From Promethearchaeota archaeon (GTDB taxonomy: Archaea > Asgardarchaeota > Lokiarchaeia > Sigyniarchaeales > SOKP01), in assembly GCA_019057795.1 (NCBI GenBank), contig JAHLWS010000060.1:1-64000 (forward strand): DNA of 64,000 bases, in the 5' to 3' direction. Numbering within the stretch: the first letter of the stretch is position 1; every line of letters begins with the position of its first letter. The translations under genes were made by a program, and so were the position numbers. The notes below the pieces were generated by a model. It made no database searches. It was not told the DNA's origin and was given only the letters and a program-made list of their open reading frames with translations. Of the stretch, positions 5,804-28,067 are shown piece after piece.

Positions 5804-6685
5804 ATGATGAAAATGACAGAATATAAGATGTTTGAGGGTTGTACGATCGGAAACCGCATTCCATTTATAGAAGCCGCTTCCAGAAAAGTTTTTGATAAGG
5901 TTGGAATTGAGACATCACAAACGAACTTTTCTTGTTGCCCAGACCCAACGGGCATGAAATCGTTTGATAACGACGCTTGGTTAGCAATCGGTGCAAGAAA
6001 TTTATGTTTAGCGGAAGCTGAAGGAAAAGACATAATTTCTCTTTGTAATGGTTGTGCCAACACGCTTAGAGGTGTTCAACATCAATTAAAGCACGATTCA
6101 TGGAAAATGGATAAGGTCAATAAAGAGCTCGCTAAGATCGGGAAAGAATATAAAGGCACAATAGACATTAAGCATTTTGTTGATGTGTTGAGCGATAAAT
6201 TAGATCAGGTCAAAGGAGCGATAACTAAGCCACTTGATGGTCTAAAAGTTGCTGTCCATCCTGGGTGTCATTATATGCGACCCGCCGAGTGGATGGAATC
6301 AGACGACCCCATGAGGCCAACAACGCTAAAAAAGCTCGTAGAAGCAAGCGGAGCAACGGTTGTTGATTACGGAGAGGAAATCTTATGCTGCGGAAGTGCT
6401 GTGACTAACGCTTACGAGGAACACGGTTTTGCTAACTTAAAGATTAAGATGGACGCCATCAAAAAATCTGGCGCAGACGTGATTGCTGTAAATTGCCCTG
6501 CGTGTTACCAACAATTCGACACGAGACAACGAGATTTAGGTAAGAAATACGAAACTGAATACGCAATTCCCGTAATGTATATCACAGAGCTTTACGCGTT
6601 AGCGATGGGTTTCACTCCAGACGAGATCGGTTTAAAGTTTCACAGAACTCGCATGAAATCCACATTAGAAAAACTTGGATTATAA
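5804..6685 (+). CDS. hdrB: Heterodisulfide reductase subunit B
   Basis: Two CCG domains: GC..CCPDP..CNGC and GCH..CCG..CPAC. Confidence 0.92.
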   Translation: MMKMTEYKMFEGCTIGNRIPFIEAASRKVFDKVGIETSQTNFSCCPDPTGMKSFDNDAWLAIGARNLCLAEAEGKDIISLCNGCANTLRGVQHQLKHDSWKMDKVNKELAKIGKEYKGTIDIKHFVDVLSDKLDQVKGAITKPLDGLKVAVHPGCHYMRPAEWMESDDPMRPTTLKKLVEASGATVVDYGEEILCCGSAVTNAYEEHGFANLKIKMDAIKKSGADVIAVNCPACYQQFDTRQRDLGKKYETEYAIPVMYITELYALAMGFTPDEIGLKFHRTRMKSTLEKLGL

Positions 6686-6722
6686 CTAACAAATTTATAA
6701 CTTTATTTTTTTATTATTTTTT
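6599..6722 (+). repeat. hdrB 3' end plus T-rich terminator, copy 1 of a direct repeat (copy 2 at 8332-8455)
   Basis: Direct sequence comparison; offset 1733 bp in the coding part. Confidence 0.92.
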
Positions 6723-6837
6723 ACAATATTTTTTCTCTTAATTTTAAATTTACTTTAATAATAATATAGAGTTCTTCTCAAGAAGCAGCTCAAAATAGCG
6801 GAGCTAAATACCTTTTTATTATATCCTTTTATCAGAA

Positions 6838-7791
6838 TTAATTTCGTATAAACTCTGCAGCTTCTCTAACTAAATCATCAGCTTGATCTGAATTGCCAGT
6901 ATCATCAATGAAAGCGTGATTAGCATTCTTATATAGAATAAATTTTACGTTATTATCTGCCTCATCTAATTTTTTAGCGTAATCCAAAGAAGTTTTATAT
7001 AACATGTCTTGATCGCCTACTGCAATTAAAGCATCGGGTAAATTAGTAAAATCTTTAGCCATAGCAGGAGATATATAGGGATCTGATGAATCCGCCTTAC
7101 CTTTAAAATATAAACTAATCATTACACGCATTACTTTCTCCATACTGGCTGAAAGCGGTGAATTCTCATCTGTATCGCCATTATTGTCTAAGGTAGTTGC
7201 TGGATAGATAAGAATTTGTTTTGCGATTTTAAATTCTTTTCTATCTTTAGCCATGAAGGTCAATACTGCTGAAAAATTACCACCTGCACTATCGCCCGAA
7301 ACAATAATTTGATTTTCGTCTATATTTAGTTCGGATTTATTCTCTACAGCCCATTTTACTGCCGAATAACTGTCTTCTAATCCTTCTGGATAAGGATGTT
7401 CTGGAGCAAGGTGATATTCTACAGATATAACCACACAATCAGCTTGATCACAAACACCTTTACAATAATCTTCTACAGCTTCTATAGTTCCGCCTATCCA
7501 ACCACCACCATGGAAAAATACCATTAGAGGCCTCTTAATATTTTCTTCTGGTTTGTAGATTCTTATCCGTAAATCATTTTTATAACCCGAAATAATTTTA
7601 TCTTCTGATATAATCGTTCGCGTAGTAATGTCTTTACTATCACCGCCCATCATAGCCCTAATTTTTGTTATATTTTTCTTAAGAAGGAATTTTACCAAAA
7701 ATGAGGGTAATTTTGCCATTTTTTCCATTTTTGAAAGATCCATTGGTTCTTCTGTTTGTTTTCCTGGTAATTCTTTTTCTACATATTCCAT
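6838..7791 (-). CDS. Alpha/beta hydrolase, HSL family esterase/lipase
   Basis: HGGGW oxyanion hole, GDSAGG nucleophile elbow, D...H triad (GDQD, NHAF). Confidence 0.92.
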   Translation of the reverse strand: MEYVEKELPGKQTEEPMDLSKMEKMAKLPSFLVKFLLKKNITKIRAMMGGDSKDITTRTIISEDKIISGYKNDLRIRIYKPEENIKRPLMVFFHGGGWIGGTIEAVEDYCKGVCDQADCVVISVEYHLAPEHPYPEGLEDSYSAVKWAVENKSELNIDENQIIVSGDSAGGNFSAVLTFMAKDRKEFKIAKQILIYPATTLDNNGDTDENSPLSASMEKVMRVMISLYFKGKADSSDPYISPAMAKDFTNLPDALIAVGDQDMLYKTSLDYAKKLDEADNNVKFILYKNANHAFIDDTGNSDQADDLVREAAEFIRN

Positions 7792-7957
7792 TTTATTCTC
7801 ATCATCATTCCTTTTATTTATTTTTACTATTTATAAGTTAAACCATGATTAAATTTAAATACTGGGTCTTTTGAATCATATGAAATTTATAAATCAATAA
7901 CTTTATTTTTTTCTAATTTTATGGTTTTAACACCTTAAAAAAGGATTTAAAGAGAAA

Positions 7958-8130
7958 TTAAGTTAAATAATGTATTTTGATTGATAACGGAAGTTCTCGT
8001 GAAGATGATCCAGCCCAAATTGTAAAAAAGCCAGATTCGATTTTGAATTTATGATCGTGTTCCGAATAGAATTCAAATGCTGATTCATCTAATATTATTG
8101 AAACAGATTGTTTCTATGATTCTGATGTTA
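7958..8130 (-). pseudogene. 3' remnant resembling the C-terminal Fn3-like domain of a GH3 beta-glucosidase
   Basis: Minus-strand translation SE*KQSVSIILDESAFEFYSEHDHKFKIESGFFTIWAGSSSRELPLSIKIHYLT*; the (E.G.F.I..GSSSR.L) ending is typical of GH3. Confidence 0.6.
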
Positions 8131-8331
8131 AATAGCTTTTCATATCAAATAATTATCAGTGGCACTATGCTTGGAAGTGGAGCATTATTTATTGTACTTT
8201 TCGGAAGCCTTCTTAATGGCTTAATCTTTGGATTCCTTGCGTTTTTCTTAACTAAGAAATAATTTCTCCTTTTTTTTCTTTAATAATAACTTTCTTAAAA
8301 TCCTCCCTCTTGTTACTTAAAAGTTATAGAA

Positions 8332-8455
8332 TTAGCGATGGGTTTCACTCCAGACGAGATCGGCTTGAAATTTCACAGAACTCGCATGAAATCCACGTTA
8401 GAAAAACTTGGTTTATAAACCAATTTATAACTTTATTTTTTTATTATTTTTTTTT
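8332..8455 (+). pseudogene. Orphan duplicate of the hdrB 3' end (28 codons plus stop and terminator)
   Basis: Encodes LAMGFTPDEIGLKFHRTRMKSTLEKLGL*, identical to the HdrB C-terminus, with 5 synonymous substitutions. Confidence 0.9.
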
Positions 8456-8519
8456 ATTAAATACCTTTTTTCCTTTACTTAGGTCCGATAATTTATAAAA
8501 AAGATGAAATTTATTAATA

Positions 8520-9200
8520 TTAGATCAAAAATCCTTTAAGGACTAAAAGAGCCCCTATATCGAAAATAATCAACGCTAAAATCTCAATCACAATTATTGA
8601 GAACAGTCCCCCTGTTAAATTGATAAAAAGCCCTAAAATAAATAAAATTACCCCTGACGAAAACCATGTTATTCTATTTTTAGTTTCGCCGTCCATTTTT
8701 CTAGTTATTAATATATAAGCATAAGCAGCATATCCGGCTAATAATATCCGAATGGTATTCACAAAAATTAACAAACCGGGAGGAGTATGGGTATTGACTA
8801 TACCAAGAGCATAATCATCCATATCTAAATACGGAGGAAATATAAAATATCCAATACTCATGACAAAGAATAAAATTAGCATGGTTCCAAGATACTTCAT
8901 GCTCATGGCAATCTTGGTATGTTTTTCTAAGACGAACAAGGTCATTATGAGGGAAATTGAATTAAAATTGAAAAAGATTTGGGCTGTTATCATAAGCGGA
9001 ATAATAATATCCGTATTATTTAAAATTAAATGGTAAATAGTATAGATTATAAATCCTAAGGATGAGGATATAAAGTATACGGCAAACCATCTGTTCAACA
9101 AGTCACTTTTGTTTAAAAAAACAACCCGTAATCCTATAATTAGTGCGATAACGGCTGTGATTATTGTCGTGATTATTTTTAGTATATTTAAAGGATCCAA
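8520..9200 (-). CDS. Hypothetical ~7-TM membrane protein
   Basis: About seven hydrophobic segments in 226 aa; TTG start. Confidence 0.7.
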   Translation of the reverse strand: MDPLNILKIITTIITAVIALIIGLRVVFLNKSDLLNRWFAVYFISSSLGFIIYTIYHLILNNTDIIIPLMITAQIFFNFNSISLIMTLFVLEKHTKIAMSMKYLGTMLILFFVMSIGYFIFPPYLDMDDYALGIVNTHTPPGLLIFVNTIRILLAGYAAYAYILITRKMDGETKNRITWFSSGVILFILGLFINLTGGLFSIIVIEILALIIFDIGALLVLKGFLI

Positions 9201-9469
9201 ATTATACTAACCTAAATTATTTTTTTTATAGTTATTTGGCGCATATAATATATATAACTTTCTTTTCGATTATCATGCAATTATTGATATTGTTTTTTCT
9301 TAATATTTGCGTTATATTTTTAGTGTCTGTCAAAGGTTCAAATCGCAAATATTAAAAATAGTGGTGGTGATTAATTATTTGCAAATTATTTCTTCGAGTG
9401 AAGAAGTATAAATTAGGTATAAAATATAAATAAATTATCTTAATGAGATATATTAGGAGTAGAGATTAA

Positions 9470-10252
9470 ATGATATCGTTCGATAAAGAGAGGTCCCCGC
9501 CCTGGTTTTTTCAATTCATCGAGAATTATTCGCATATAATGTTAGATTTGCGATTCAACACGGATAATGTGATGGTAGAAATGTTAAACTTTTCGTTAGA
9601 TTTAGAATTTCAGGGATTTGAAGGCTTAATTTTTTACATTTACAAACCAAACTCAAATAAAATCGAGTTCGACATTCTCGACCACAGAACTGTGTTCAAT
9701 AGCACAATAAAGAATTTGCATATTGACATTAAAGATTATACCTCTTCAGACTCGCTAGATTTTATCCTTATCCCTTTTGGGCACTTCAAGGAAGACCATA
9801 AGTTCATTCCAGTAATACACAGCGGAAATGTAGAATCAAATTATCAGATATTTACTTGGTCTCCGTCGTTACTTTTTAAAAACATTAAATCGATAATTAA
9901 AATTGCAAATACTTACGACGAAATAGTGCCGCTAGCGTATTTAGAGCGATACTACTATCAATTTAATAGCTCGTTTAAAGGAAATAAAACGGAATTTCTT
10001 TTCAGTCTTATTAATATCCTTGTTAGTCTTGAGGATATGCCCGATATTGAACCTTTAGTCTCTAAGATAAAAGAGTTAATCACAAAAACTAACGAGCTTT
10101 TATTTGAATTGTGCCAAAGATCAATTCCCTTAGAAATGAATAGCCTTCTCAAAGAATTAGAGCGGTTGAAATTCAATGTTGACAATTTATCTAAAGAAGA
10201 AATCTTTAATTGGCTCGACGACCTGTTAAATTTTTATGCGGATAAGGTTTAA
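9470..10252 (+). CDS. Hypothetical protein
   Basis: 260-aa ORF with AGGAG SD upstream; no recognisable motif. Confidence 0.65.
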   Translation: MISFDKERSPPWFFQFIENYSHIMLDLRFNTDNVMVEMLNFSLDLEFQGFEGLIFYIYKPNSNKIEFDILDHRTVFNSTIKNLHIDIKDYTSSDSLDFILIPFGHFKEDHKFIPVIHSGNVESNYQIFTWSPSLLFKNIKSIIKIANTYDEIVPLAYLERYYYQFNSSFKGNKTEFLFSLINILVSLEDMPDIEPLVSKIKELITKTNELLFELCQRSIPLEMNSLLKELERLKFNVDNLSKEEIFNWLDDLLNFYADKV

Positions 10253-10335
10253 ACGACTTTATTGTTTTCATGGATGACTACTATGTCATAACTCTGCTAA
10301 GATTTATTAATAAAAAGAAGAAAAATTTTCTTATC

Positions 10336-10890
10336 TTATTTTTTAATTTTTTCTATAACAAGGAGAATTAACGCTACTAAGAGGAAAATTGCTCCAACAA
10401 TCAAGAAACCAAATTTTATCGTCGCAGAAAGTGACGCAATTAAAGGGACGAACGATGCAAACTCGGAGCCTTCGTTAAGCATGATGAGTAGATTTATATT
10501 TTCCATAATGTCAAAAATTCCGGCGATAATTGGCGTTAAGCTCATGTAAAGGCCAATATTTAGCATATTATCGTTCAATTTTCTCGAAATGAGTAAAATC
10601 AATGCGAAAAGAGGTACTGTGTAACCAACGATATAAAGAAAGTCCCAGTACACTCCCGCCGCTTGCGCTGTCATTTCTTCGGTGCCCCAAAAATCAAAGA
10701 TCGTTAATATTTGCTCTTCAGTCCAAGCAAATTCAAAGTCTAAGATACCATACATACCTCCTGAATATGCCAACGGTCCAAAAATCAGAATGTTAATTGT
10801 AAGAAGAATGACAATTCCTATAGCCGCTACTATTAATAGAATTAAATCGCTCGGATATTTTTTTAAATTTTCTAATTTTTCTAAAAACAT
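10336..10890 (-). CDS. Hypothetical 4-TM membrane protein
   Basis: Four hydrophobic helices; DFLY and FDIMEN motifs. Confidence 0.7.
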   Translation of the reverse strand: MFLEKLENLKKYPSDLILLIVAAIGIVILLTINILIFGPLAYSGGMYGILDFEFAWTEEQILTIFDFWGTEEMTAQAAGVYWDFLYIVGYTVPLFALILLISRKLNDNMLNIGLYMSLTPIIAGIFDIMENINLLIMLNEGSEFASFVPLIASLSATIKFGFLIVGAIFLLVALILLVIEKIKK

Positions 10891-11073
10891 ATTATTTCAC
10901 GTTTTAAAACCTAAAATTTAACTAACGAAAGTTATGATAATAAATTAAATTTAAGTTTAATATATAATAAATTCTAACCTTCATTTAAAAAATAAACAAT
11001 TATATAATCATTAATTATTTTTAGGTTCTAATATTAGGAAAATTAGATATATTCATTCTAAAATTGTAAAATT

Positions 11074-11322
11074 ATGTGTCTCGCTATCCCTGGAAAAATT
11101 ATTCAGATTAACATCGAAAAAAGTTCCGCTTTGGTAGACTTTGACGGAATACAGCAAAACGTTATAACTGCTTTAATTTTAAACCCGGAAGTTGGAAAGT
11201 ATGTAATCGTACACGCAGGGTACGCCATCGAACAAATTAACGAAAAAGACGCACTTGAAGCGATTGAGCAGTGGAAAGAGATTGCCGAGGATCAGAACCT
11301 TAACTTATCCGATATTATGTAA
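11074..11322 (+). CDS. hypC: Hydrogenase maturation chaperone HypC
   Basis: MCLAIPGKI N-terminus and VIVHAGYAI. Confidence 0.95.
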   Translation: MCLAIPGKIIQINIEKSSALVDFDGIQQNVITALILNPEVGKYVIVHAGYAIEQINEKDALEAIEQWKEIAEDQNLNLSDIM

Positions 11323-11340
11323 TTAATTCTAAATTCTGTG

Positions 11341-12144
11341 CTATAAATCAAATAACTCGATTTTGAGCTGCTTTAATTTGTCAAATAGCTTTTTAATAGC
11401 GCCAATAGCCTTTGAATCTGGATTAAAATCTAAAGGGGAGGCTCCATTCAAATCAGCTTTTCCGATTTCGGAGTCGAAAAGAATTGAGTGATATAATGGA
11501 ACTTTCCAATCTCTAATACGATCGTTGATAACACTTAATTGAGATTCATCAATCACTTTGTTAACAATAAGATAGATGTTAATTACGCCTAATTTTCTCG
11601 ATAATTCTATTATTTTAGAGCAAAGGTCTAAAGATTTCTGAGAAGGTTCAGCTATTACCAGCATGACATCGATTCCTTTAGCAGTGCCACGACCTAAATG
11701 TTCTAAACCCGCTTCGAAATCAACGATTACTACTTCGTCTCTTTTTACAAGCAAGTTAAATAATAAAGTCCTGATCAAAGCATTTTCGGGGCATAAGCAA
11801 CCTGAGGCGGGTTCTACAATTCCTCCTAATACAAGCAATTGTAACCCGTTTGGACCAGTGACTTTAAATTTATCAGGAATATCGGACACATTTGGAGTTA
11901 TGTTATAAACGCCTGGACCAGCACCCTTAACAACCGTACGTTCCTCAATCATTTTTTTCATTTCTGAAATCGGGACAATCTTTGATTTGACCGTTTCACT
12001 TATTCCTAAAGTATAGCTTAAATTCATCGCTGAATCGTTATCAATAGCTAAAACTTTAAACCCATCTATAGCAAAAAGTCGTGCTAAAGTTCCAGCGATT
12101 AAAGTCTTACCAACACCGCCTTTACCGGCTACTGCGATTTTAAT
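11341..12144 (-). CDS. cooC: CooC-type nickel-insertion ATPase; true 5' end lies upstream of the listed ORF, apparent ATT start at 12144
   Basis: Frame extends 39 codons upstream of 12027 to (I)KIAVAGKGGVGKT (deviant Walker A); GCLCP metal site; DFEAGLEHLGRG. Confidence 0.85.
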   Translation of the reverse strand: MKIAVAGKGGVGKTLIAGTLARLFAIDGFKVLAIDNDSAMNLSYTLGISETVKSKIVPISEMKKMIEERTVVKGAGPGVYNITPNVSDIPDKFKVTGPNGLQLLVLGGIVEPASGCLCPENALIRTLLFNLLVKRDEVVIVDFEAGLEHLGRGTAKGIDVMLVIAEPSQKSLDLCSKIIELSRKLGVINIYLIVNKVIDESQLSVINDRIRDWKVPLYHSILFDSEIGKADLNGASPLDFNPDSKAIGAIKKLFDKLKQLKIELFDL

Positions 12145-12320
12145 TCTAAATCTACCTTTTTATTAATTATTTGGTTTGTTTTAATTATTTTTTAACTGAA
12201 ATTAAATTTTTAGGTTAAGTTTAGTAATAATCTGTAGAGGATTGTTTATCTTAGATAAAAAATTTGACTAATAATTTATGGTATATTAGTTTATGAGGAG
12301 TCAAAATAGAATTATAAGAT

Positions 12321-12581
12321 TTAACAATTCTTACCCATATTTTGCATTCTTTTTGATATTTTCATCATTTCGTTAAAGATCTTCTCGTTATCTTTCGGAT
12401 TTTTAGAAACGATTAGTTTTTCATTTAAATCTTTTATTTTCATTGTTAATTCTGTAAATTCCTTAGGTGGTTTTAGTTGGTAATGATGAATTAATTCGCC
12501 ATTATCTTTGAATTCAATATAAACCCATTTATTATCTTTTTGGGACCAATTCCACCTGTTATGCGTTAATTCTCTTGCCAT
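12321..12581 (-). CDS. Hypothetical protein
   Basis: 86-aa ORF with coding-like composition; its 3' end is duplicated at 13226-13270. Confidence 0.65.
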   Translation of the reverse strand: MARELTHNRWNWSQKDNKWVYIEFKDNGELIHHYQLKPPKEFTELTMKIKDLNEKLIVSKNPKDNEKIFNEMMKISKRMQNMGKNC

Positions 12582-12798
12582 TCAATTTTTCACAATTTTT
12601 CTAAAATAAATTAGCATAGATAGTAATCAAATATCTATTAGCTAAAACCTTGTTATTGTTATTATTTTATACGAAGAGATATTTATTGTTTTTTAAAAAA
12701 TATATTAACGAGTTATTAAGAAACAACGAAAAAATTAAAATTGAAAGGTTTTAAAATTACTAGTTTTAACAATTTAATTTCGCCATTATCTTTAAATT

Positions 12799-13140
12799 TC
12801 AAACGAAAAATCTAAAGAAATTACCCGCTACAAGTAAACCGATTATCCCAACTATTATAATAAGTATTAATTCACCTAGACAACCTGGTCCTCTCAACCA
12901 GATAGATTTTTTCTTCTGGGATAGAATTGAATGGTCTCCTAAAACTAAATACGATTTAGGTTTAATCACATTTTGATTTTTAAGCATTTTTTGCTTATCT
13001 TCCTCCGACATATCTATCCATTTTCTTATCATTATCATAGAAACTCCCTGCTCGGTAGCTATATCTTGAATACTTTTCCCTAATTCATAATACTGGTGTT
13101 TTAACCAATCTGAATTCTTATAATCATCTTTTACCTTCAC
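12799..13140 (-). CDS. HTH-domain protein with C-terminal TM helix
   Basis: WLKHQYYELGKSIQDIATEQGVS...IRKW HTH pattern; hydrophobic C-terminus; GGTGA SD upstream. Confidence 0.65.
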   Translation of the reverse strand: MKVKDDYKNSDWLKHQYYELGKSIQDIATEQGVSMIMIRKWIDMSEEDKQKMLKNQNVIKPKSYLVLGDHSILSQKKKSIWLRGPGCLGELILIIIVGIIGLLVAGNFFRFFV

Positions 13141-13268
13141 TTTCTCACCTTTTTTTAATTATATTATTACTTTCAGTAAAAAGTGCTAAATATAATGAAA
13201 TGAAATATAAGATTATTTTAAAGATAGATTTAACAATTCTTACCCATATTTTGAATTCTTTTTGATAT

Positions 13269-14678
13269 TTAACAATTTAATTTCGAGAGCATTTCTATAG
13301 CAGCTTCCCGAACGTCAATGTCCTTATCTCTTTGAAGTGCTTTCAACATATCTATCTTTTCATTATTCTCAAAATTCTGTAAAGCTTTAATGAGGTATAA
13401 CTTTACGATCCAATCGTCGTCTTTAACTAGTCCTTTGAAAGCGTCAAAAACTTTAGGTCCTTTTATGAAGCTTAATACTTTTATAGCGTATGTTTTTAAA
13501 TCTCTATTGCTTTTACTTAAATCTTCGACAAGCTGGGCTACAATCAGATCCTTAGAATCATTTGTCATTTGTTTATACATTTTAAAGAAAAGAGTAGGTG
13601 GAAAGTTTTCAAAAACAATCTGGTCTGGTATTATAACGGGTTCTATATTATCAAATACCTGATCTTCACGAACTTTTAATTCTACTATCAAATCGCTTAA
13701 TTGTTTGTTAGAGTTTTCGAACTTTTGGTATTTAACATTTAAATTTTCTAATTCTTCGTCTCTTTCTGAAATTTTCTTAAGAAACTCTTCAATTTTTTGC
13801 TTTAAGCTTTCTATAATGGATACATTCGTATTTATAATATCTTTTAACTCGGTATTTTCTACTTCTAAACGTAATAAATTGCCCTTTAATTCTTTTAAAT
13901 TATCGCCGATTTCAACGCCTTCTGGAGACGCTTGTTCATGAAATTTTACGGTTTCTTCTATTTTCTGTTGTAAATAATTAACCTTTTCGTGATATTGATC
14001 GTTGTCAAAAGTTAACTGGTCGACAATTTTATTTACCTCATCTAATTCGTGGATGTATTGAGTTTTAGCCTCATCATTCTCTTGTAGATTCGTTTTAAGC
14101 TTTTCTATTTCTTGCTTTAACGATTCAATTTGAACGCGACTAATCCCGTTTTCTTCGGTTAATTGAAAAATCAGTTTTTTCGCATTTATTAAATCTTGAT
14201 TTTCTTCTCCAATATCTCCTTCTTTAAATACGAGTTTTTCTTGCAATTCTTTTATTTTGGTGTTCAAATTCTCGATTTTAAGGCGATTAGTCTCGTTTTC
14301 TTCAGTCAATTGCACAATAACTTTGTTTGAGTAAATTAATTCTTCATTATCTTCGTTAAAATTTTGAGCGTTTTCAAATTCCTTCGATATTTCCGCAATA
14401 GTTTGTTGTAGGATTTCAATATCTTTTTCCTTTTTGATAATTTCTTGTCTTTGGTTCGTGACTAACTCTTTTAACACGATTATATCTTCCGGAATATTGT
14501 TTTCTTTGAATTCAGAAAGTTTAGATTTTTGGTTTTGTATTATTGTTTTTTGCTCATCAATAGTAAAGTTCAATCGCTGCACTTCTTCTTTTAGACGACT
14601 TATAATGGTTTCTAAATCGGAGTGAGTTTGATTTGTGTAATCAACTGAATCTATTAAATCCTTTAATTCTTTACTCAT
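13269..14678 (-). CDS. Long coiled-coil protein with C-terminal HEAT-like repeats
   Basis: Heptad-rich E/K/Q/L region of about 340 aa; C-terminal D.D..V(R/K)..A...L repeats. Confidence 0.75.
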   Translation of the reverse strand: MSKELKDLIDSVDYTNQTHSDLETIISRLKEEVQRLNFTIDEQKTIIQNQKSKLSEFKENNIPEDIIVLKELVTNQRQEIIKKEKDIEILQQTIAEISKEFENAQNFNEDNEELIYSNKVIVQLTEENETNRLKIENLNTKIKELQEKLVFKEGDIGEENQDLINAKKLIFQLTEENGISRVQIESLKQEIEKLKTNLQENDEAKTQYIHELDEVNKIVDQLTFDNDQYHEKVNYLQQKIEETVKFHEQASPEGVEIGDNLKELKGNLLRLEVENTELKDIINTNVSIIESLKQKIEEFLKKISERDEELENLNVKYQKFENSNKQLSDLIVELKVREDQVFDNIEPVIIPDQIVFENFPPTLFFKMYKQMTNDSKDLIVAQLVEDLSKSNRDLKTYAIKVLSFIKGPKVFDAFKGLVKDDDWIVKLYLIKALQNFENNEKIDMLKALQRDKDIDVREAAIEMLSKLNC

Positions 14679-14895
14679 TTTAATAGCGTATTAATGTTCT
14701 AATTTGAATTATTAATAAAGGTTTTAGCTAATAAATCTTCACATATTTTAGCTAAATACTATATTTTGATAATGAAACTTGAGATAATAAATCTTTATTG
14801 ACTCCTACATGAAAAATTTTAAATTATTGGAAATTATTTAATACGTTATATATAATCGGAAATAAGTAAATAAAATAGATTTATAGTGAAAGAAT

Positions 14896-15726: not shown

Positions 15727-15731
15727 TTATT

Positions 15732-20434: not shown

Positions 20435-20522
20435 TTGCCCGTTTAATTTTTTATTACAATAATAACTATTACATTAAACATAATACCAATAGGAAAGGAG
20501 ATATCAGTTTATCTTCTCTTTT

Positions 20523-21136
20523 TTATTTTTCTTTCTTGCTTTTTGAACGAAATTCAATGTCCACTATAAGATTTGGGAGGTCATATTTTTTTAATTTATT
20601 TCTAATAGCTTCAAAACCAGAACACTGACCCCATTTAAATTGAGACTCACATTTTTTGCATGTATTATATAACCCATATGCGTGGTAAACATTTAAAAAA
20701 GTGAGGAGAGTACTAAAAACTAACAGAAAGATTATAGAATTTGTAAAAACTGGAAAATTCAGAGAGAAAATCCCCCAAAATATCAAAGCTGAACCAAATC
20801 CGATAAATATTTTTTGAATAATTTTTATTATTTTAATTCTTGTTGCTCCTGTAAAACTTAGAAAAAAAAAGTTGACATAAACAGAATGCCAAAAATTATT
20901 AAATAATTTGAAGGAATTGATTCGTTTAGTTTAAAAACTCCCATAATTATTATCGCTATGAACGAAGTAGGATATCCAATAAAACACCCAATGCAAAATT
21001 CATGTTTGCGAAGTTTTATTGCGTGTCCCTTGAAATTCTCGCATTCCGGGTGGTGCCTAAGAAAAAATGAACCAAAGCTTTTAATAACTAAGAAAGTTTC
21101 TAACAACTTGCTCCTTTTTTTCTCTTTACCTTTCAT
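20523..21136 (-). pseudogene. Cys/His-containing membrane protein split by a frameshift in a 9-nt homopolymer (20862-20870)
   Basis: ORFs 20858..21136 and 20523..20786 join into ...MSTFF(F)LSFTGATRIKIIKIIQKIFIGFGSALIFWG... when the run length changes; HHPEC, CIGC and CKKC..C motifs. Confidence 0.7.
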
Positions 21137-21592
21137 TATCTCGATAAGTAAATTTAATCGTTAGAAATTAATTACAAAAGATATGTGATACATCTTATAA
21201 AACCATGTCTTAGTTCAAAAAAAAAAATTGTTCTCATCAAATTTAGCGTGAAGTAGCAAGGTTAAAACGCTAACCTAAATCGATTGTAAAATTACTAAAA
21301 ACAATCATTACTTAATAAAATTGTTGAATTTTAGTCAAAAAAAAACTTAAAAATCACATAAAAGTTATATAAATGACTTTTTTATTTATAGATGATTTAT
21401 ACTTTTAGTGCATACCAACATTATTTATCAAAAAAAGTTATCGATATTGATAATGCAATTTCCGTTTTCGGTCCTTCAACTTTCCGAAATGATTCCCATA
21501 ATTATTGAAAATGTACGGAAAAAGTCATGATTTAAATATGAAAAATCATATTTCTATCATAGAAACATAAAAAAAAATTGTTTTGATGAAAA

Positions 21593-21862
21593 ATGGCATT
21601 AAAAGTAAATGAAAGAAATATTGACGATGTATTTGATGGAGAATATAAAAAAATAAGAGAATCTTTATCAGGTTTAAAAGAGATTTTTAAAATTAATCTT
21701 TTAGAGAATAATATATATTATCAATGCGCTACCGATAATCTGGAATCCATACATGAAACTATAATCAGTCTATTAAAACATATGTACTCACCTCGAGAAG
21801 TGAGAATGAGGTTGCGAGAGATTGAATATGACGAGCTTGAAGCCCAAGAAAGCTACATTTAA
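21593..21862 (+). CDS. Hypothetical protein
   Basis: 89-aa ORF; no motif recognised. Confidence 0.6.
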   Translation: MALKVNERNIDDVFDGEYKKIRESLSGLKEIFKINLLENNIYYQCATDNLESIHETIISLLKHMYSPREVRMRLREIEYDELEAQESYI

Positions 21863-21983
21863 CAGTATTCCTTTTTTAATCGTTTATTAAAAATATTTGT
21901 GTGCTTTTCGTCAAAACTGTTACTTATTATTACGAAATTACGAAATCTTTATTTTAATAAAATAAGTTTGTATTTTATTATTT

Positions 21984-23384
21984 CTAAATTGAATTTAATT
22001 CCCAAATATCGAGAGAATTCACTTTCACTTTTCCTCCTGTTGTAAAAAGATCAATAGCAAACGGTAAGTTGCTTTTGGAAATGATTTGACCTGTAATACA
22101 TTCACGATGGTTTGCAAAAACTTCGATAATCGAATTGTCAATAAAGATATGCAAGTTCAATTTCTTACTATTATTTTCAAGAATGAAATTAACTTTATCT
22201 TTGCCAGACCATAATACATTATTTGATTGGTCATACCCGATTGATTCAGCTTGAATTATTGATTTAGAATTAAATAATTGAATTCCAAAAGACTTTGCAT
22301 CAAGTAATTCAAACTCTATTGCGATTTCTAAATGTTTACTTCGAATATTTTTTAAAATCTCCTTAGAATTTTGAGAAATCACGAGGTTGCTAAATTTATA
22401 ATGCTTTTTCCTCAATTTTTCGAGCTCAGGTAATGGGGCGTATCTTAACTTGTTATCTGGACCTAAGCTCAGTATCCGTGGTAAGGACAAACAACCGTTC
22501 CATCCTTTAATGTCTGTAGCACGAATCCATGCCCATAAGATTGTTCTATTATGTGGGTCCTTCATTACATTGGTTGCGTAGAACAAACGACCGTGATCTA
22601 AAGCGTACCACTGATTTGGAGTAAAGGAATTATTATTGTAGTCTCCTACAGCGTAGATTACTTTATTATGGGGGGATACAATAAGTATGTATTTATCCTT
22701 GATTGGAAAGAAATTTGGACATTCCCAATTCTTACCCTTCTTCCTATCTTCGATACATAATGGACCAATAAACTCCCAAGTGTAGAAGTCTGACGATTTA
22801 TAAAGTAGAACTATAGGTCTTCTTGGATTAATTAAATGTCCTCCTAAAACAGCGTACCATTCGTTACTTTCTTTCCATACAAAAGGATCCCGCCAATCTC
22901 TCACATCTAATTTCTTATGAATTTCTTGGGTCAATACTGGATTATTTTCGTATTTTTGCCAAGATACCATGTCATCTGAGCTTGTAGCAATCCATTGTTC
23001 GGCTTCAGTAGCGGGTGGTTTACTAGGTCCTATACTAGTATACAATATTGTTGGTGTGTTGTCAATAACGATACAACTTCCGGAAAAACAGTGAGTCTCA
23101 CCTTTATCTACAGAGGGAATCAATGCTATTGGTAAATGCTCCCATTGAACTAAATCTTTACTTTTGGCGTGACCCCAATGAACATTTCCCCATTGCGCTC
23201 CATAAGGGTTATGTTGATAAAAAATGTGATATTCTCCTTTATAGTAAATGGGACCGTTTGGATCGTTCATCCAATTAGCTGGGGCGATAAAATGATATTT
23301 TGGCCTTAAAGGACAATCTTCTTCTCTTAAACGAGCGTTCTTATACATTTCTAAATAAGGCTTTTTTTCGTTATTTTTATCCAT
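21984..23384 (-). CDS. GH32 beta-fructofuranosidase/invertase-like glycosidase
   Basis: WMNDPNG, FSGS, RDP and WECP catalytic motifs. Confidence 0.95.
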   Translation of the reverse strand: MDKNNEKKPYLEMYKNARLREEDCPLRPKYHFIAPANWMNDPNGPIYYKGEYHIFYQHNPYGAQWGNVHWGHAKSKDLVQWEHLPIALIPSVDKGETHCFSGSCIVIDNTPTILYTSIGPSKPPATEAEQWIATSSDDMVSWQKYENNPVLTQEIHKKLDVRDWRDPFVWKESNEWYAVLGGHLINPRRPIVLLYKSSDFYTWEFIGPLCIEDRKKGKNWECPNFFPIKDKYILIVSPHNKVIYAVGDYNNNSFTPNQWYALDHGRLFYATNVMKDPHNRTILWAWIRATDIKGWNGCLSLPRILSLGPDNKLRYAPLPELEKLRKKHYKFSNLVISQNSKEILKNIRSKHLEIAIEFELLDAKSFGIQLFNSKSIIQAESIGYDQSNNVLWSGKDKVNFILENNSKKLNLHIFIDNSIIEVFANHRECITGQIISKSNLPFAIDLFTTGGKVKVNSLDIWELNSI

Positions 23385-23450
23385 TAATAAAACTAAAATT
23401 TTGAAAATATTTTTAATTTTCTAAATGAATTCTTTTTCTCAGAAATATTA

Positions 23451-24581
23451 GGTAGGTCCATTCATGATAGCAGTGAGCTCTTAAATGATTATCTCCTGAG
23501 CAGGAGGAGAGGAAGACCAAGGACTTTCTCGGACGGAAGGAGGAAGCGCTTAGTGCCTCATCAAACCGAAGTAAACAAGTATCTCCGTAAGATTGGATTT
23601 AAGAAAGCGCAGAAGATCTTGCGCGAGTGCATGGATGGGCAGCTTTTAGATGCTCTGGAAAGAGGCCTCATCTCAGAGAAGGTTAATGTGCTCATTGACT
23701 TCACTGAACATCCTTATTATGGAAAAAGAGAGGATACAATGATCAAAGGAACGAGTCGGGCGAAGGGCACGAAGAAGATGCGTCATTACTTAGGCTTCTC
23801 GATTCTTTCACGCAACACTCATCTTTATGTAGGACTGGAGCAAGTGGCATCAGGACAATCTAAAATACCCATCATCTTGAAATTTCTCGAACACTTACTT
23901 AATCTGGGATTCAAGTTAGGATATGTATTGATGGATAGAGAATTCTATAGAGTTGTGTTATTAAATGGAATTAAGGCAATGAAGGGAGAGGTCATTATTC
24001 CTGCCAAAAAATACAAAAAGATCAAGCAGTTTCTTACCGATTATCTTGAGGGAACGCATGGTCGGGTGCGGAAATACACGCTTTCTAGTAAAGCGGCTGC
24101 GACATACCAATTTTCCCAACATGTTTATGTGATAATAAAAGCAAAAAATCAATTCACTCTTCAAGGGGTCAAGCGGGACTACCAAGCTAAAAGGATATCC
24201 TTAGACGATGCTCGGAAGCGATTGTTTATAATAATGACTACCGAAAAACCTCGAGGCAAGACAAGCTCTTGGGCGTCCCGCACGGCACTATTTTATCGAA
24301 AACGTTGGTTCATTGAAACGGGATTTTCCGACTTAAATCGAATTAATCGCCGTTGGAAGTCGAACTACGATAATGTGCGCTACTTGGACATGTTGGTGCG
24401 GCTTCTTCTTTATAATTCTTGGAAAATGAATAGGAAAATGATCCAAAAATCGGAAATAAAAGGGAGAAAGAAAAGAGCATGGACGCTCAATCGAAACCAG
24501 GATGCTTTAATAAGTTCTTATCTTTCTGATTTAAAAAATCAATAGTTTAATCAAGAATTTTCAGAATATTGTCGGTGTAAG
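23451..24581 (+). mobile_element. IS remnant (IS4/ISH3-like DDE transposase), 5'-truncated
   Basis: GC-richer segment. ORF 23553..24545 has IDFT, MDREF and Y-2-R-3-E (YRKRWFIETGF); frame is open upstream with no ATG; no paired TIR seen. End coordinates are approximate. Confidence 0.75.
23553..24545 (+). CDS. DDE transposase (probably N-terminally truncated)
   Basis: DDE triad and YREK-like motif. Confidence 0.85.
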   Translation: MPHQTEVNKYLRKIGFKKAQKILRECMDGQLLDALERGLISEKVNVLIDFTEHPYYGKREDTMIKGTSRAKGTKKMRHYLGFSILSRNTHLYVGLEQVASGQSKIPIILKFLEHLLNLGFKLGYVLMDREFYRVVLLNGIKAMKGEVIIPAKKYKKIKQFLTDYLEGTHGRVRKYTLSSKAAATYQFSQHVYVIIKAKNQFTLQGVKRDYQAKRISLDDARKRLFIIMTTEKPRGKTSSWASRTALFYRKRWFIETGFSDLNRINRRWKSNYDNVRYLDMLVRLLLYNSWKMNRKMIQKSEIKGRKKRAWTLNRNQDALISSYLSDLKNQ

Positions 24582-24670
24582 GCATAAACAAAAAGAATAA
24601 AAAAAAAATAAATACTTAAATACTCAATATAAAAAAAAGGAGTTAATTCTATCTTAATTACCTTCAATGT

Positions 24671-25090
24671 TTAGATCAGAAGAGCCACTAATACTATACC
24701 AAGAATGATACCTAGTACGATCCCTACTAATATTGCGATTAAAAAAAGGACGATTTGTACAACTATAACAAAAATGATTGACTCACCAAATTCTTTTTTA
24801 TAAACAATCTTAACTACAATGGCTCCAATAATAATGGCAAGTACTAATTCGAGGAGACCAAATAGAAAACCTGCTCCAAACAAGTACTCAACTAGTAAAC
24901 TAATTGGAATACCTGTTATTAGCCAAATTATATTGACTATGAATGCTGTTGAGAGAGAATCGTCCCATTCTTTTTTCTTGGCGTACCACCGCGTCACATA
25001 TGTACCAACTATAAAGATTATAATTGCTAAAATAATGACTGTAGTAAACGCAATAATTTCAACAAGTTGAAATAACATGTTTATCATCAA
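24671..25090 (-). CDS. Hypothetical 4-TM membrane protein
   Basis: Almost entirely hydrophobic, 139 aa. Confidence 0.7.
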   Translation of the reverse strand: MMINMLFQLVEIIAFTTVIILAIIIFIVGTYVTRWYAKKKEWDDSLSTAFIVNIIWLITGIPISLLVEYLFGAGFLFGLLELVLAIIIGAIVVKIVYKKEFGESIIFVIVVQIVLFLIAILVGIVLGIILGIVLVALLI

Positions 25091-25346
25091 ATTTTTGGTA
25101 ATTAAAGTATAATTTGGTCTGATTATATATAAATGTATACCTTTAATGCATTTTCCCCTAATGTATAATTAGAAGGTGACAAATTACATCTATATCTACA
25201 TTTTCACCTCAGTTTGAGCAAATTCTTACCCAAGTTAATTAATATTTAGTAAAGTAGATAGTCGGTTTCTAAGTAATTATCGCTTAATATTCTACGCTCA
25301 ACTACTCATAGATTTTATATATAAATGATTGTTGATTTTCTAAAAT

Positions 25347-26795
25347 ATGAGAATTTTCTTAGTAATTTTTGATACTTTAAGAAAAGACCACACGGGACGG
25401 ACTTATGGAAACGATTGGATAAAAACTCCGAATTTTGACTCGTTTTGCAAGGATAGTATTGTATATGATAAGGCCTATCCTGAATCGCTAGCTACTATTC
25501 CGGTTCGTAGAGCGATACACACGGGCATTAGAACGTTTCCATTTAATCATAAGCGGCCCAAATTACGCACAGACGATATCGTTCATTTAAACGGCTGGGA
25601 CCCTATACCTCCACATCACAGGCATTTATCCGAATATTTAAACAGCGAGGCTTTTCTAACGTCTTTTATCACGAGTACATATCATCAATTTAAACCAAAC
25701 ATGAATTTTCATTTAGGTTATGACCAATGGAATTGGATAAGAGGTCATGAAGACGACAAATATAGAGCTAGAATAAGGAACGGTAAAACAGAAATGAAAC
25801 GATTACTTAAATTGCATATCGTAAAAAAAAACGCTATAATAAAATTACTGCAAAAAAGAATATTAAAAGCGTATTTCTCTAATGTTCAAGAGCGAAGGTC
25901 AGAAGAAGATTACTTCCCAGCTAAAACCTTTAAAAAAGCAATTGAATTCGTTAAAGACACCTTAGATTTTAAAAAAGTTTTTTGTCTTATTGATGAGTTC
26001 GATCCTCACGAACCGTGGGATCCTCCGCAAAAATATCTTGATTTGTATTTAGAAAAAGGCTATACAGGAAAAAGAATTATAACCCCTGCTTATATGGAAA
26101 GTGTTGATTATCTTTCCAAAGAAGAGTTAAACTTCATGAGGGCTAGTTATGCTGGAGAAGTTTCTCTATGCGATAATTGGTTCGGTTATTTCGTTAACGA
26201 GTTAAAGGAGTTAGAAATTTACGACGATTCATTGATAATCTTTATTAGTGATCATGGGCATAGTATAGGCGAACACAATGCTACGGGAAAACTGCCCATG
26301 TTTATGTATCCTGAATTAGTAGACCTTCCTTTTATGATTAAACCACCAGGAGGAATTAATGGTCCAAAAAAAATTAGGAAACCTTACGTGTATAATTTCG
26401 ACATATTACCAACCATTTTTGGGTTTTTAAATAAAGATAAACCTAAAGAATTTGAAGGCATAGATTTATCGATTTTTGTTGATGAGGAAGATCAGAATTT
26501 AGATGGTCGGAGTTATATCACATGTGGATTCGATGTGTGTACATTATACAAGGACGATAATTACGCTTTAATTACCTCAAATAACAGAAAACATCAAAAA
26601 TTATATGATTTGAGGAATGATCCTGAATGGAATATGAACATTGCTAACGAAAATCCAGAAATATGTAATGATGCTTTTAATAAAATTAAACTCGATGCAA
26701 AAGGCGATCTTCCACTTGTTAGTAGATTTGAATTCGAGAGTTTAAAAGATTGGTATCTTCAAAAAAGCACGTTCTCTCATAAAAGTCAAAACTAA
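25347..26795 (+). CDS. Sulfatase-like alkaline phosphatase superfamily hydrolase
   Basis: FDTLRKDH, TPNFD, TIPVR..HTG, DPHEPWDPP and SDHG. Confidence 0.85.
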   Translation: MRIFLVIFDTLRKDHTGRTYGNDWIKTPNFDSFCKDSIVYDKAYPESLATIPVRRAIHTGIRTFPFNHKRPKLRTDDIVHLNGWDPIPPHHRHLSEYLNSEAFLTSFITSTYHQFKPNMNFHLGYDQWNWIRGHEDDKYRARIRNGKTEMKRLLKLHIVKKNAIIKLLQKRILKAYFSNVQERRSEEDYFPAKTFKKAIEFVKDTLDFKKVFCLIDEFDPHEPWDPPQKYLDLYLEKGYTGKRIITPAYMESVDYLSKEELNFMRASYAGEVSLCDNWFGYFVNELKELEIYDDSLIIFISDHGHSIGEHNATGKLPMFMYPELVDLPFMIKPPGGINGPKKIRKPYVYNFDILPTIFGFLNKDKPKEFEGIDLSIFVDEEDQNLDGRSYITCGFDVCTLYKDDNYALITSNNRKHQKLYDLRNDPEWNMNIANENPEICNDAFNKIKLDAKGDLPLVSRFEFESLKDWYLQKSTFSHKSQN

Positions 26796-26872
26796 CCTTT
26801 TTATTTTCCTAAATAATTTTTTTTATTATACACCGGCTCCTTGTGCAAAGTCTATTAAAACTGATCGATCTT

Positions 26873-27490
26873 TCAAATTTTTATATATTCTCCTAAGTCT
26901 TTTCTAAATTTTCCATAAAATATACCATATACAAAATTTGAAATTCCCCCCAGAGCAATATCAATAAACAGTAATATTAAAATTAGATTTTGATTGCCAA
27001 TTGTAAAAATAGGTGATATTATCAATAGAACTACAAATAAACTTAAAGTGCAGATTGCCTCAGATAAAAGCCAAACTCTAAGAATTTTTCCGTTGTATTT
27101 ATTAATAATGGCTATGATGAGTTTTATAGCTCCTAAAATCATAACATAAAATATAACTACTATAGTTATCGTATTAATATCGTTAAAAATGTTAATAACC
27201 CGAAGCATTGCCAGTAAAAACCATAGAACGCCATAGAACATTATGAGTGCACCTGTTAATTCTTCAAATTTGCCAACTTTTGTTTTACAGTAATAGCTAA
27301 AATACCCATTATTATAAACAGAAAAAGCTTGAATCATAAACATCCCTAAAAAAACTGCTAGTTTAATATTAATACTGAGAACTTCGGAAGGACTAGATAA
27401 CGCAATAAATCCAATAGATATTGTGATTATTCCAATAAAAAAGGGTGTAGATTTTTTATATTTTTTTTTTTTTCTTTTTTCTTCATTCAT
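26873..27490 (-). CDS. Hypothetical 6-TM membrane protein
   Basis: Six hydrophobic segments, loosely HdeD/DUF308-like. Confidence 0.65.
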   Translation of the reverse strand: MNEEKRKKKKYKKSTPFFIGIITISIGFIALSSPSEVLSINIKLAVFLGMFMIQAFSVYNNGYFSYYCKTKVGKFEELTGALIMFYGVLWFLLAMLRVINIFNDINTITIVVIFYVMILGAIKLIIAIINKYNGKILRVWLLSEAICTLSLFVVLLIISPIFTIGNQNLILILLFIDIALGGISNFVYGIFYGKFRKDLGEYIKI

Positions 27491-27659
27491 TAGACTTTGT
27501 CCTAAATTTTATTAATATTTTAATCCTATTTAATTATTTAAAATAGTTTCTTGTTTTATTTATACTTATCAACGAGGACTAATTCTTTTAAATTATATTA
27601 TAATTATTTAAAATCAGAATTAAATGTAATCGAATAATTATTGAAGTAAATTTAATAAT

Positions 27660-27770
27660 CTATATAGGTTTTGGAACGACCTTTCCATTATCTACAACGA
27701 AAGGATTAGTTTTTACTACAATATTTTTGAACCATTTTTCGACAAAAGAAGGTTTTCTTAAATTAGAAGG
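27660..27770 (-). pseudogene. Probable 3' remnant of an unknown gene at an insertion junction
   Basis: 36 open codons PSNLRKPSFVEKWFKNIVVKTNPFVVDNGKVVPKPI* abutting the repeat boundary at 27771. Confidence 0.4.
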
Positions 27771-28067
27771 CAGAATTTAGATGGCCAGAGTTATATCACA
27801 TGTGGATTTGATGTGTGTACATTATACAAGGACGATAATTACGCGTTAATTACTTCAAATAACAGAAAATATCAAAAATTATACGATTTGAGGAACAATC
27901 CTGAATGGAATATGAACATTGCTAACGAAAATCCAGAAACATGCGATGATGCTTTTGAAAAAATAAAACTCGATGCAAAAGGCTATCTTCCACTGGTAAG
28001 CAGGTTTGAATTCGAGAGCTTAAAAGATTGGTATCTTCAAAAAAGCACATTTTCTGATAAAGGTTAA
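27771..28067 (+). pseudogene. Orphan duplicate of the sulfatase-like gene 3' end (matches 26493-26783)
   Basis: About 290-bp direct repeat at offset 1278, roughly 90% identical by eye; ORF 27813..28067 matches the C-terminus of 25347..26795. Confidence 0.92.

Follow-up and report, generated by a model that had tools for sequence, protein, structure and literature searches.

In a 64,000-nt stretch of a lokiarchaeal genome (Promethearchaeota archaeon; Lokiarchaeia; SOKP01; GCA_019057795.1, JAHLWS010000060.1, positions 1 to 64,000; hereafter the window), three resident genes each retain an intact 3' end that is followed by accessory cargo and then by an orphan copy of the same end, with no recombinase or nuclease detected in cis. 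The copies have a two-allele origin, relatives carry the same sites empty or occupied by other cargo, and the architecture recurs genome-wide. These data support, as the best reading and one we regard as probable if only narrowly so, a model where homologous crossover in a core gene is combined with an illegitimate join and the process is repeated over time. All support for the pattern comes from metagenome assemblies, the same-genus genomes examined being without exception multi-contig.

Table 1. Features of the three loci (window positions)
Locus	Feature	Position	Strand	Source
hdrB	hdrB-like anchor gene, 293 aa, two CCG domains, intact	5804..6685	+	
hdrB	Terminus copy 1: last 87 coding nt plus 37-nt post-stop T-rich segment 'a'	6599..6722	+	
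hdrB	Segment 'b', alignable to G005 sequence downstream of hdrB	6723..6755	+	
hdrB	Cargo 1: Abhydrolase_3 esterase, 317 aa	6838..7791	-	Pfam
hdrB	Terminus copy 2: post-stop segment 'a', possibly plus last few codons	~7866..7922	+	
hdrB	3' stub, putative GH3 beta-glucosidase gene	7955..8110	-	family by eye
hdrB	3' stub, 55 codons plus stop, of 169-aa membrane-protein gene	8095..8262	+	
hdrB	Terminus copy 3: orphan, 87 nt plus 'a'	8332..8452	+	
hdrB	226-aa membrane-protein gene, variable region	8520..9200	-	
Middle	Resident 86-aa gene, own 3' end at 12317-12361	12317..12581	-	
Middle	17-nt orphan of 469-aa gene end, stop included	12767..12783	-	
Middle	485-bp insert	12784..13268	-	
Middle	113-aa gene, HTH plus membrane anchor, inside insert	12799-13140	-	
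Middle	45-nt stub, 3' end of an 86-aa gene, inside insert	~13226-13268	-	
Middle	469-aa coiled-coil/HEAT gene, anchor; last 17 nt = 13269-13285	13269..14678	-	
Sulfatase	Sulfatase-family anchor gene, 482 aa	25347..26795	+	
Sulfatase	Intact repeat copy, gene's last few codons altered	26493-26789	+	
Sulfatase	Cargo 3: membrane protein, 205 aa	26873..27490	-	
Sulfatase	37-codon open tail ending in stop	27663..27773	-	
Sulfatase	Orphan sulfatase tail, 297 nt	27771..28067	+	
Sulfatase	GNAT acetyltransferase gene, native downstream neighbour	28141..29397	+	

An earlier note on this DNA had correctly placed three tail-repeat loci in the window, with the anchor gene kept intact, but had read hdrB as one capture. 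The hdrB and sulfatase repeats each flank one opposite-strand gene. At hdrB, three termini stand in series, the shorter second copy at ~7866-7922 being absent from that note, and the array records several events. Copies 1 and 3 (6599-6722 and 8332-8452) align over 124 nt at 92.7% identity, extending about 37 nt past the stop, and their 5 differences are all synonymous (5/5). The intact tail, which is the end of the working gene, is closest to that of metagenome contig L107, the sole relative with the esterase block, and the orphan is closer than copy 1 to six of the seven esterase-free relatives. L107 itself carries the first tail, the esterase and the second terminus, which leads directly into native downstream sequence. 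The esterase occurs in 1 of 39 same-genus genomes searched, and a search of genome contigs and metagenome contigs returned only L107 and, in a different context, G092. Upstream of it and in the same orientation lies a stub (7955-8110) corresponding to some 52 aa at the C-terminus of a 686-aa G013 protein, putatively of GH3 type as judged by eye only; this stub, the one at 8095-8262 and a third behind the sulfatase gene (27663-27773) bear out the earlier description of neighbour-gene remnants at the joints. No donor layout was found in which hdrB is followed by the esterase and a complete GH3 gene. Beyond the orphan, the 226-aa membrane-protein gene is present in G002, G008 and G014 and absent from G005, G009 and L107, and sliding identity along hdrA-hdrB reveals mosaicism with no breakpoint attributable to the insert. 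The short ORF at 8310-8498 is the hdrB orphan tail and not a gene.

The order of genes at this locus bears on Campbell-type insertion-duplication, by which a small circle carrying a gene tail and cargo would enter through a single homologous crossover in the resident tail, thereby duplicating it, and would be excised by the reverse crossover. Such a route needs no enzyme beyond host recombination and yields the same topology of tail, cargo and tail; each cargo gene does carry a 3' stub of a former upstream neighbour, as circles that keep one repeat would lead one to expect, and the esterase-then-GH3 order of G135 is a circular permutation of the stub-then-esterase order found here, which a circular intermediate fits better than our preferred reading does. 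However, integration of a circle predicts two chimeric copies, but at hdrB the orphan resembles the native sequence throughout and it is with L107 that the intact tail groups. The available homology (17-124 nt at 91-93% identity) is very short for a host recombinase, the first formation of the circle junction is left unexplained, and no circular form has been observed. We regard a circular intermediate as unlikely, while placing it ahead of the other alternatives.

At the middle locus, the 45-nt repeat behind the earlier note's entry at 12.3-13.3 kb does exist (12317-12361 and 13226-13270, 98% identity, with the upstream orphan copy abutting the stop of the 469-aa gene), but its geometry and anchor had been misassigned. 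The anchor is the 469-aa gene with its 17-nt orphan, and the 45-nt repeat is a stub carried within the insert. An exact 17-nt direct repeat (12767-12783 and 13269-13285), identical to the last 17 nt of the 469-aa gene, borders the 485-bp insert; the interval 12784-13268 is missing from five same-genus genomes and from contig L107, the repeat is single-copy at these empty sites, and the orphan adjoins native downstream sequence just as the end of the 469-aa gene does in all six relatives. A homing-nuclease DNA-binding relic was considered for the 113-aa HTH gene and rejected, since in other species its HTH forms the N-terminal part of TPR/zinc-ribbon and WD40 proteins.

At the sulfatase locus the two tails (26493-26789 and 27771-28067) align over 297 nt at 91% identity, and the orphan adjoins the GNAT gene exactly like the single tail of the empty-site genome G107. 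The open tail at 27663-27773 is probably what remains of the 3' end of a gene that once lay upstream of the cargo. No parent gene was found for it, nor a donor in which the sulfatase gene precedes the membrane gene with that upstream neighbour at full length. Trees and identity matrices of the 297-nt tails were uninformative, all pairs lying at 86-94%. The block 26879-27624 is 94-99% identical to a segment of G153 that lies at another, unrelated locus free of any repeat, so that homology anchoring is not the sole route. The short ORF at 27813-28067 corresponds to the sulfatase orphan tail rather than to a gene.

The recurrence claimed in the earlier note extends well beyond these loci. Genome-wide, short near repeats comprise 124 direct versus 7 inverted cases, a direct-repeat pattern far above chance, and the same hotspots are used in other species (G014, G099). 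By position, about 23 repeat loci are associated with the 3' end of a gene and about 10 with the 5' end, the roughly 2:1 enrichment in the direction anticipated, while the notion of a single accessory gene per site proved too narrow, inserts holding 1-6 genes each. The cargo at 20 loci is ordinary (transporters, hydrolases, toxin-antitoxin pairs), with a homing-type nuclease at 1 of the 20, and cargo genes are single-copy in this genome, on which ground their interpretation as multicopy mobile elements was rejected. The 3' boundary of the repeats falls at the stop codon or terminator, where donor-recipient homology ends, and the 5' boundary is sharp and locus-specific, inspection of the joins revealing hardly any shared sequence or none; such sharp, motif-free junctions fit the combination of a one-sided anchor and an illegitimate join that had been put forward.

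Tail pairs at 19 loci (590 codons) feature 89 synonymous versus 90 non-synonymous differences (pN/pS 0.26), a synonymous share of 50% against the 20% expected (p 3e-18), confirming the suspected synonymous bias. This concentration of changes at synonymous sites shows that the copies are alleles from diverged lineages. The copies are 7-9% diverged with a pS of 0.25, which equals the between-species distance in this genus and indicates donors that differ at the species level, rather than the conspecific donors of the earlier note. Local tandem duplication of a tail with subsequent neutral decay of one copy, though the simplest source of direct repeats, is hardly credible against these numbers: neutral decay does not produce so strong a synonymous bias, on account of which we reject duplication in situ, and the genes enclosed by the two copies are foreign to close relatives.

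Anchor genes are colinear with their counterparts in relatives as far as the insert, at 80-93% identity; empty sites are found in G005, G009 and G107, and G014 and G099 carry other cargo with independent orphans of different 5' boundaries at the same hotspots, where relatives' inserts comprise OsmC, ParE-type toxin-antitoxin and hydrolase genes. Assembly artefact, in which co-assembly of strains stitched haplotypes in tandem and created false duplications, has in its favour that the genome was binned from a metagenome, in 87 contigs and with 7.5% contamination. In addition, near-repeat density seems lower both in 400 kb sampled from a 528-kb contig of the same genus and in a closed genome belonging to another family, 400 kb of which yielded no 3'-type case. 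Nevertheless, no sequence is common to the stub-to-orphan junctions and the gene body, so that a k-mer graph cannot make these junctions without spanning reads; the assembly has no Ns and little redundancy between contigs (~50 kb), and the same architecture with different boundaries is present in the separately assembled G014, G099 and G008 of other species as well as in a JGI contig. We give this explanation very little credence.

Consistent with the earlier observation that no recombinase lies in or beside the inserts, no integrase or transposase was found in or near them. Only four to five tyrosine recombinases are encoded in the genome, none of them in the window, PF00589 matches being confined to contigs C56, C82, C22, C78 and C40 with none on C60. 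For TnpB, the window contains a single weak match, at 49773, away from the three loci. By inspection, no shared recombination motif was seen at orphan boundaries across ~25 loci and no attC-like shared site at cassette borders, with no IntI nearby, and reading the ends of the middle-locus insert and of the membrane-gene cassette disclosed no inverted termini. Repeats range from 17 to 297 nt, in contrast to the fixed-length target duplication expected of a transposon, and those at the ends are exact over 17 nt at the middle locus and long and 7-9% diverged at the other two. These results weigh on the idea of integrative-element remnants, or mini-elements moved in trans by an integrase, that target gene 3' ends with a tail copy in the attachment site. 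Such elements typically integrate at gene 3' ends and duplicate the tail. One repeat copy at C82:121518-124171 lies within a tyrosine-recombinase gene, and the exact 17-nt repeat of the middle locus, single-copy at empty sites, may just as well represent the core of an attachment site or a duplicated target. At hdrB and the sulfatase gene, by contrast, the repeats are diverged over their full length with synonymous differences and lack an identical core, the junctions share no motif, and the inserts of ordinary genes have no element backbone. Integrative elements are, in our estimation, a very improbable source of the pattern.

Scans of the genome for HNH, HNH_3 and LAGLIDADG_3 gave no match within window positions 1-30000, and Pfam detected neither a nuclease nor a nuclease remnant at the three window loci or at 19 of the 20 genome-wide loci. 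The remaining locus is a two-gene HNH_3 module (C78:153818-157818) with the same tail layout. It lends some weight to repair of homing-type breaks, in which modular nucleases, encoded elsewhere or formerly within the cassettes, would cut the tails of core genes, and repair from diverged alleles would load arbitrary neighbours behind a resistant tail, nuclease-free loci being hitch-hikers or relics left after nuclease loss. The layout matches the model for yeast WHO elements, where every event installs a new 3' end and shifts the earlier tails further downstream (PMC7282813). Set against this are the near-complete absence of nucleases from the loci scanned, the kinship of the HTH of the 113-aa protein with TPR and WD40 proteins rather than nucleases, and the nature of the relatives' hotspot inserts, leading us to consider nuclease-driven capture improbable, both as an account of these loci and in this general modular form.

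Under the crossover-and-illegitimate-join reading that we prefer, diverged DNA of the same genus would enter the cell carrying the tail of a conserved gene and whatever follows it in the donor. One side would be integrated by homologous recombination within the conserved gene and the other by illegitimate joining inside or just behind the resident tail, such that the incoming tail completes the gene and the resident tail, displaced downstream, stays as an untranslated orphan beside its native neighbour, with donor genes broken at the far end of the fragment persisting as stubs. Repetition at one gene would build an array of termini, the newest adjoining the gene, as with the three at hdrB, and a finished unit of new tail, cargo and old tail could spread among relatives by ordinary homologous recombination. 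From the scars we infer in which order the events took place, that anchoring was one-sided and how DNA entered the cells; natural transformation as the uptake route is pure assumption. Short, diverged repeats may be those that persist, since recombination between long, identical ones would remove the cargo. Against the same reading stands the roughly 2:1 excess of 3' over 5' ends, which a symmetric mechanism leaves unexplained.

If real, the arrangement of intact tail, cargo and diverged orphan tail would provide a signature of recent gene gain in uncultivated Asgard genomes, and one that tells which flank is native. It would imply that homologous recombination works between lineages ~8% apart, and would bear on the build-up of the unusually large, fluid Loki-type genomes as well as on the debate over recombination and gene flow at the boundary between prokaryotes and eukaryotes. 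The C78 case ties ordinary accessory-gene hotspots to a homing-nuclease cassette layout within the same genome; should capture by break and repair be true, selfish nucleases would drive the flow of ordinary accessory genes between species of Asgard archaea. For annotation, short ORFs such as those at 8310-8498 and 27813-28067 call for caution, being orphan tails.

Toxin loci of bacteria and homing elements of yeasts already provide examples of such a scar, which here marks ordinary cargo without recombinase or nuclease. Campbell-type insertion-duplication of circular DNA is a standard genetic tool in Streptococcus and Bacillus and likewise leaves the homologous segment as a direct repeat on both sides of the insert, but it needs a circular donor and usually longer, near-identical homology than the 17-124 nt at 91-93% seen here. 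Integrons have reportedly been found in archaea, and their cassettes resemble these inserts in being compact, often single-gene, placed at a fixed hotspot, commonly of toxin-antitoxin content and pushed back as they age; unlike integrons, these loci have no IntI gene or shared attC-like site, and the repeat is the host gene's own tail, different at each locus. In bacterial homology-facilitated illegitimate recombination, recipient DNA is usually deleted, whereas here the recipient tail is retained and the process is deduced from scars alone. Both nonetheless pair a homologous anchor on one side with an illegitimate joint on the other, where shared sequence is slight or absent, trapping foreign DNA without a dedicated recombinase, and in bacteria capable of transformation the process has been shown by experiments with natural transformation (de Vries and Wackernagel 2002; Prudhomme et al. 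2002; Meier and Wackernagel 2003, as cited in PMC5361080). The WHO homing elements at FBA1 of Torulaspora and Lachancea yeasts also place a replacement gene end beside cargo and orphan the original end downstream, where the previous 3' end and older cargo shift and decay while the orphan gives homology for spread (Coughlan et al. 2020, PMC7282813); WHO elements, and the mobile endonuclease ORFs of fungal mitochondria grouped with them, encode the nuclease, which is undetectable at 19 of 20 loci and at the three window loci here. Finally, at Rhs, CDI and T6SS loci, displacement of C-terminal ends or effectors has been proposed to occur via homology-facilitated illegitimate recombination (Jackson et al. 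2009; Kirchberger et al. 2017, PMC5361080), and there too the conserved 5' part of the gene serves as anchor, the new 3' end brings an attached gene, the old end is orphaned downstream and arrays form by repetition without an integrase. The displaced tails of those systems are toxin domains and their cargo immunity genes, kept by selection, whereas in this Asgard archaeon the anchors are housekeeping or metabolic genes, both tails belong to the same protein and the cargo is arbitrary.

The site 3' of hdrB is a hypervariable hotspot. Two relatives' genomes (G005 and G009) carry the 260-aa gene (window 9293 onward) almost directly after hdrB, and four others (G002, G008, G011 and G014) hold 3.4-10 kb of different, mosaic cassettes there, G014 with its own orphan hdrB tail (a stranded second copy of the gene end) behind an OsmC-like gene and with a different 5' boundary. 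In the present genome the elements run in the order first tail, esterase, second terminus, two stubs, third tail and 226-aa membrane gene. The most informative relative for this locus is L107, a JGI metagenome contig with ~92% identity over window 1973-14739, in which hdrB, its first tail and the esterase are followed by a second copy of the hdrB post-stop segment that continues directly into native downstream sequence as in G009, window ~7912-9340 being absent. Because L107 has this second post-stop segment after the esterase, window ~7866-7922 is a third copy of the hdrB terminus. The intact tail, that of the working gene, has its nearest relative in L107, and the orphan is closer than the intact tail to six of the seven relatives without the esterase. 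Among the 39 same-genus genomes searched, only G092 has the esterase, in another context and with homology limited to the ORF. As to the stubs, the G013 protein matched by the first is a putative GH3-type beta-glucosidase, judging from its sequence.

Features at the hdrB and sulfatase loci (window coordinates)
Feature	Position	Strand	Remark
hdrB-like anchor gene	5804-6685		CCG domains
hdrB terminal segment, 124 nt	6599-6722		87 coding nt and ~37 nt post-stop
Abhydrolase_3 esterase, between hdrB tail copies	6838-7791	minus	
3' stub	7955-8110	minus	matches the C-terminus (~52 aa) of a 686-aa G013 protein
3' stub	8095-8262	plus	matches the 55-residue C-terminus of a membrane protein (169 aa)
Recurring copy of hdrB tail	8332-8452		92.7% identity to 6599-6722
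Sulfatase-family gene	25347-26795		final 297 nt repeated
205-aa membrane-protein gene, between sulfatase tails	26873-27490	minus	
Open 37-codon tail, 3' stub at joint	27663-27773	minus	
Orphan sulfatase tail	27771-28067		91% identity to intact tail

L107, although the closest contig, differs from the present genome by several gene-content changes inside 15 kb; in reverse complement, its positions 1-3138 place ~3 kb upstream of window 1973 with no match in this genome, and past window 14739 it goes on into sequence found here on contig C24. Within the hdr operon, at the hdrC/hdrB boundary (window 5459-5858), identity to G005 falls to 80-82%, against 90-97% on the upstream and 86-93% on the downstream side, and that to G011 and G002 is not lowered but rises through 5659-5858, a profile suggestive of a recombination tract in the operon.

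At the sulfatase locus, G107 shows the empty site, its sole sulfatase tail adjoining the GNAT gene exactly like the orphan in the present genome. A cassette of ParE-type toxin-antitoxin plus hydrolase, or its remains, lies directly after the sulfatase stop in G105 and G005, with no orphan sulfatase tail behind it, and G099 has this cassette together with a 332-nt sulfatase orphan. The cargo block between our two tails (26879-27624) is 94-99% identical to a copy in G153 located 13 nt past the stop of an 865-aa gene, a site whose empty counterpart is C65:149087-149091 in the present genome; no repeat flanks the G153 insertion. For the 37-codon tail at the joint no parent gene was detected. Two ORFs, at 8310-8498 (62 codons) and 27813-28067 (84 codons), are the orphan hdrB and sulfatase tails read from internal starts and would be false gene calls.

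At the middle one of the three 3' ends for which the earlier note had claimed gene capture (12.3-13.3 kb), the 45-nt repeat that it reported exists (12317-12361 and 13226-13270, 98% identity), but its assignment is not borne out, the repeat being a stub brought in with the cargo. Window 12784-13268 (485 bp) is missing in G105, G153, G009, G107, G005 and L107. It comprises a 113-aa gene (HTH plus membrane anchor) together with the 45-nt stub, which derives from the tail of an 86-aa gene. On both sides of this insert stands an exact 17-nt direct repeat, the 3' end of the 469-aa gene with the stop codon included. Since the insert edges repeat an end that is single-copy in relatives, the anchor is the 469-aa gene and the orphan measures 17 nt. 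Together, this exact repeat and the relocation of the membrane-gene cassette with no repeat at all show that a single route may not account for every case. The 113-aa protein (12799-13140) has an HTH N-domain that in G012, G049 and G047 forms the N-terminal part of TPR/zinc-ribbon and WD40 proteins, and a truncated or co-opted regulatory module is a possible reading of the short gene. Nearby, a further hotspot for insertions behind a gene's 3' end lies at window ~12185-12239, with ~1.3 kb of extra DNA in G099 between the 86-aa gene and a 228-aa ATPase-like gene.

Self-comparison of the genome for near repeats of 30-500 nt, with identity of 80% or more and 200-6000 nt between copies, returned 124 direct versus 7 inverted pairs. 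A repeat copy lies across a gene stop at ~23 loci and across a gene start at ~10 (binomial p ~0.035), a rough count because it is based on an ad hoc, simple longest-ORF gene call, and in most 3'-type cases the orphan follows the intact gene on its downstream side. The orphans have sharp boundaries, with no motif in common. Comparing intact with orphan tails at 19 loci (590 codons) gives 89 synonymous and 90 non-synonymous changes (pS 0.25, pN/pS 0.26), a synonymous share of 50% versus 20% expected (p 3e-18). This synonymous excess, with the pS value, indicates that the tail copies accumulated their differences as functional alleles of distinct lineages about a species apart. Elsewhere in the window (55102-59447), beyond the range of the three loci, three tandem minus-strand genes of 413, 439 and 454 aa have 265-340-nt 3' ends in common (85-89% identity), which resembles an array of paralogs or cassettes whose tails are conserved.

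The source is a metagenome bin of 87 contigs (4.95 Mb, 31% G+C, zero Ns) with only ~50 kb of between-contig redundancy. Because the junctions have no sequence in common with the body of the gene, spanning reads would have been needed for a k-mer graph to produce them. The same layout is found in other species' genomes, presumably separate assemblies (G014, G099, L107 and G008). The pattern is not uniform: against two 3'-type cases within 400 kb of a 411-kb contig in G008, density appears lower in G017, with one case in 400 kb, and in a closed genome from a different family, with none in 400 kb. Window 1-130 is identical to C62:66215-66344, a contig-end overlap of the kind usual in k-mer graph assembly, which suggests that C60 (the contig whose bases 1-64000 make up the window) lies next to C62.

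Across 20 loci of the genome, the cargo includes an ABC transporter operon, two MFS transporters and one CitMHS transporter; nitronate monooxygenase and acyl-CoA dehydrogenase; two alpha/beta hydrolases and two PEMT-type methyltransferases; a histidine kinase and a response regulator; one LRR protein; four MNT-HEPN pairs and one MazE-PIN pair; one HNH_3 two-gene nuclease module; and several proteins of unknown function. Toxin-antitoxin pairs are frequent between duplicated tails (L089, L096, L098, L102 and L105 in this genome), with ParE-type cargo behind the sulfatase gene in G099 and G105. Tyrosine recombinases number only 4-5 in the genome, with none on C60, and the window's only TnpB-type match is weak and distant from the loci. 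One copy of a 162-nt direct repeat (85% identity) at C82:121518-124171 falls within a 304-306-aa tyrosine-recombinase gene, and the repeat may mark an integrated element with its attachment site in its own integrase gene.

Overall, sequential gene-end displacement best explains the scars. A homologous crossover within a conserved gene would be combined with an illegitimate joint at the fragment's far end, leaving the resident tail stranded downstream, and the whole unit could later spread through homologous recombination. A circular intermediate, nuclease-triggered repair and mini-elements mobilised in trans are possible alternatives. No description of such gene-end displacement in Asgard archaea was found in the literature searched. 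The same displacement logic has been proposed for the orphan arrays of Rhs, CDI and T6SS systems (PMC5361080), and is at work in the WHO elements of yeast, where a nuclease takes part and drives the displacement (PMC7282813).
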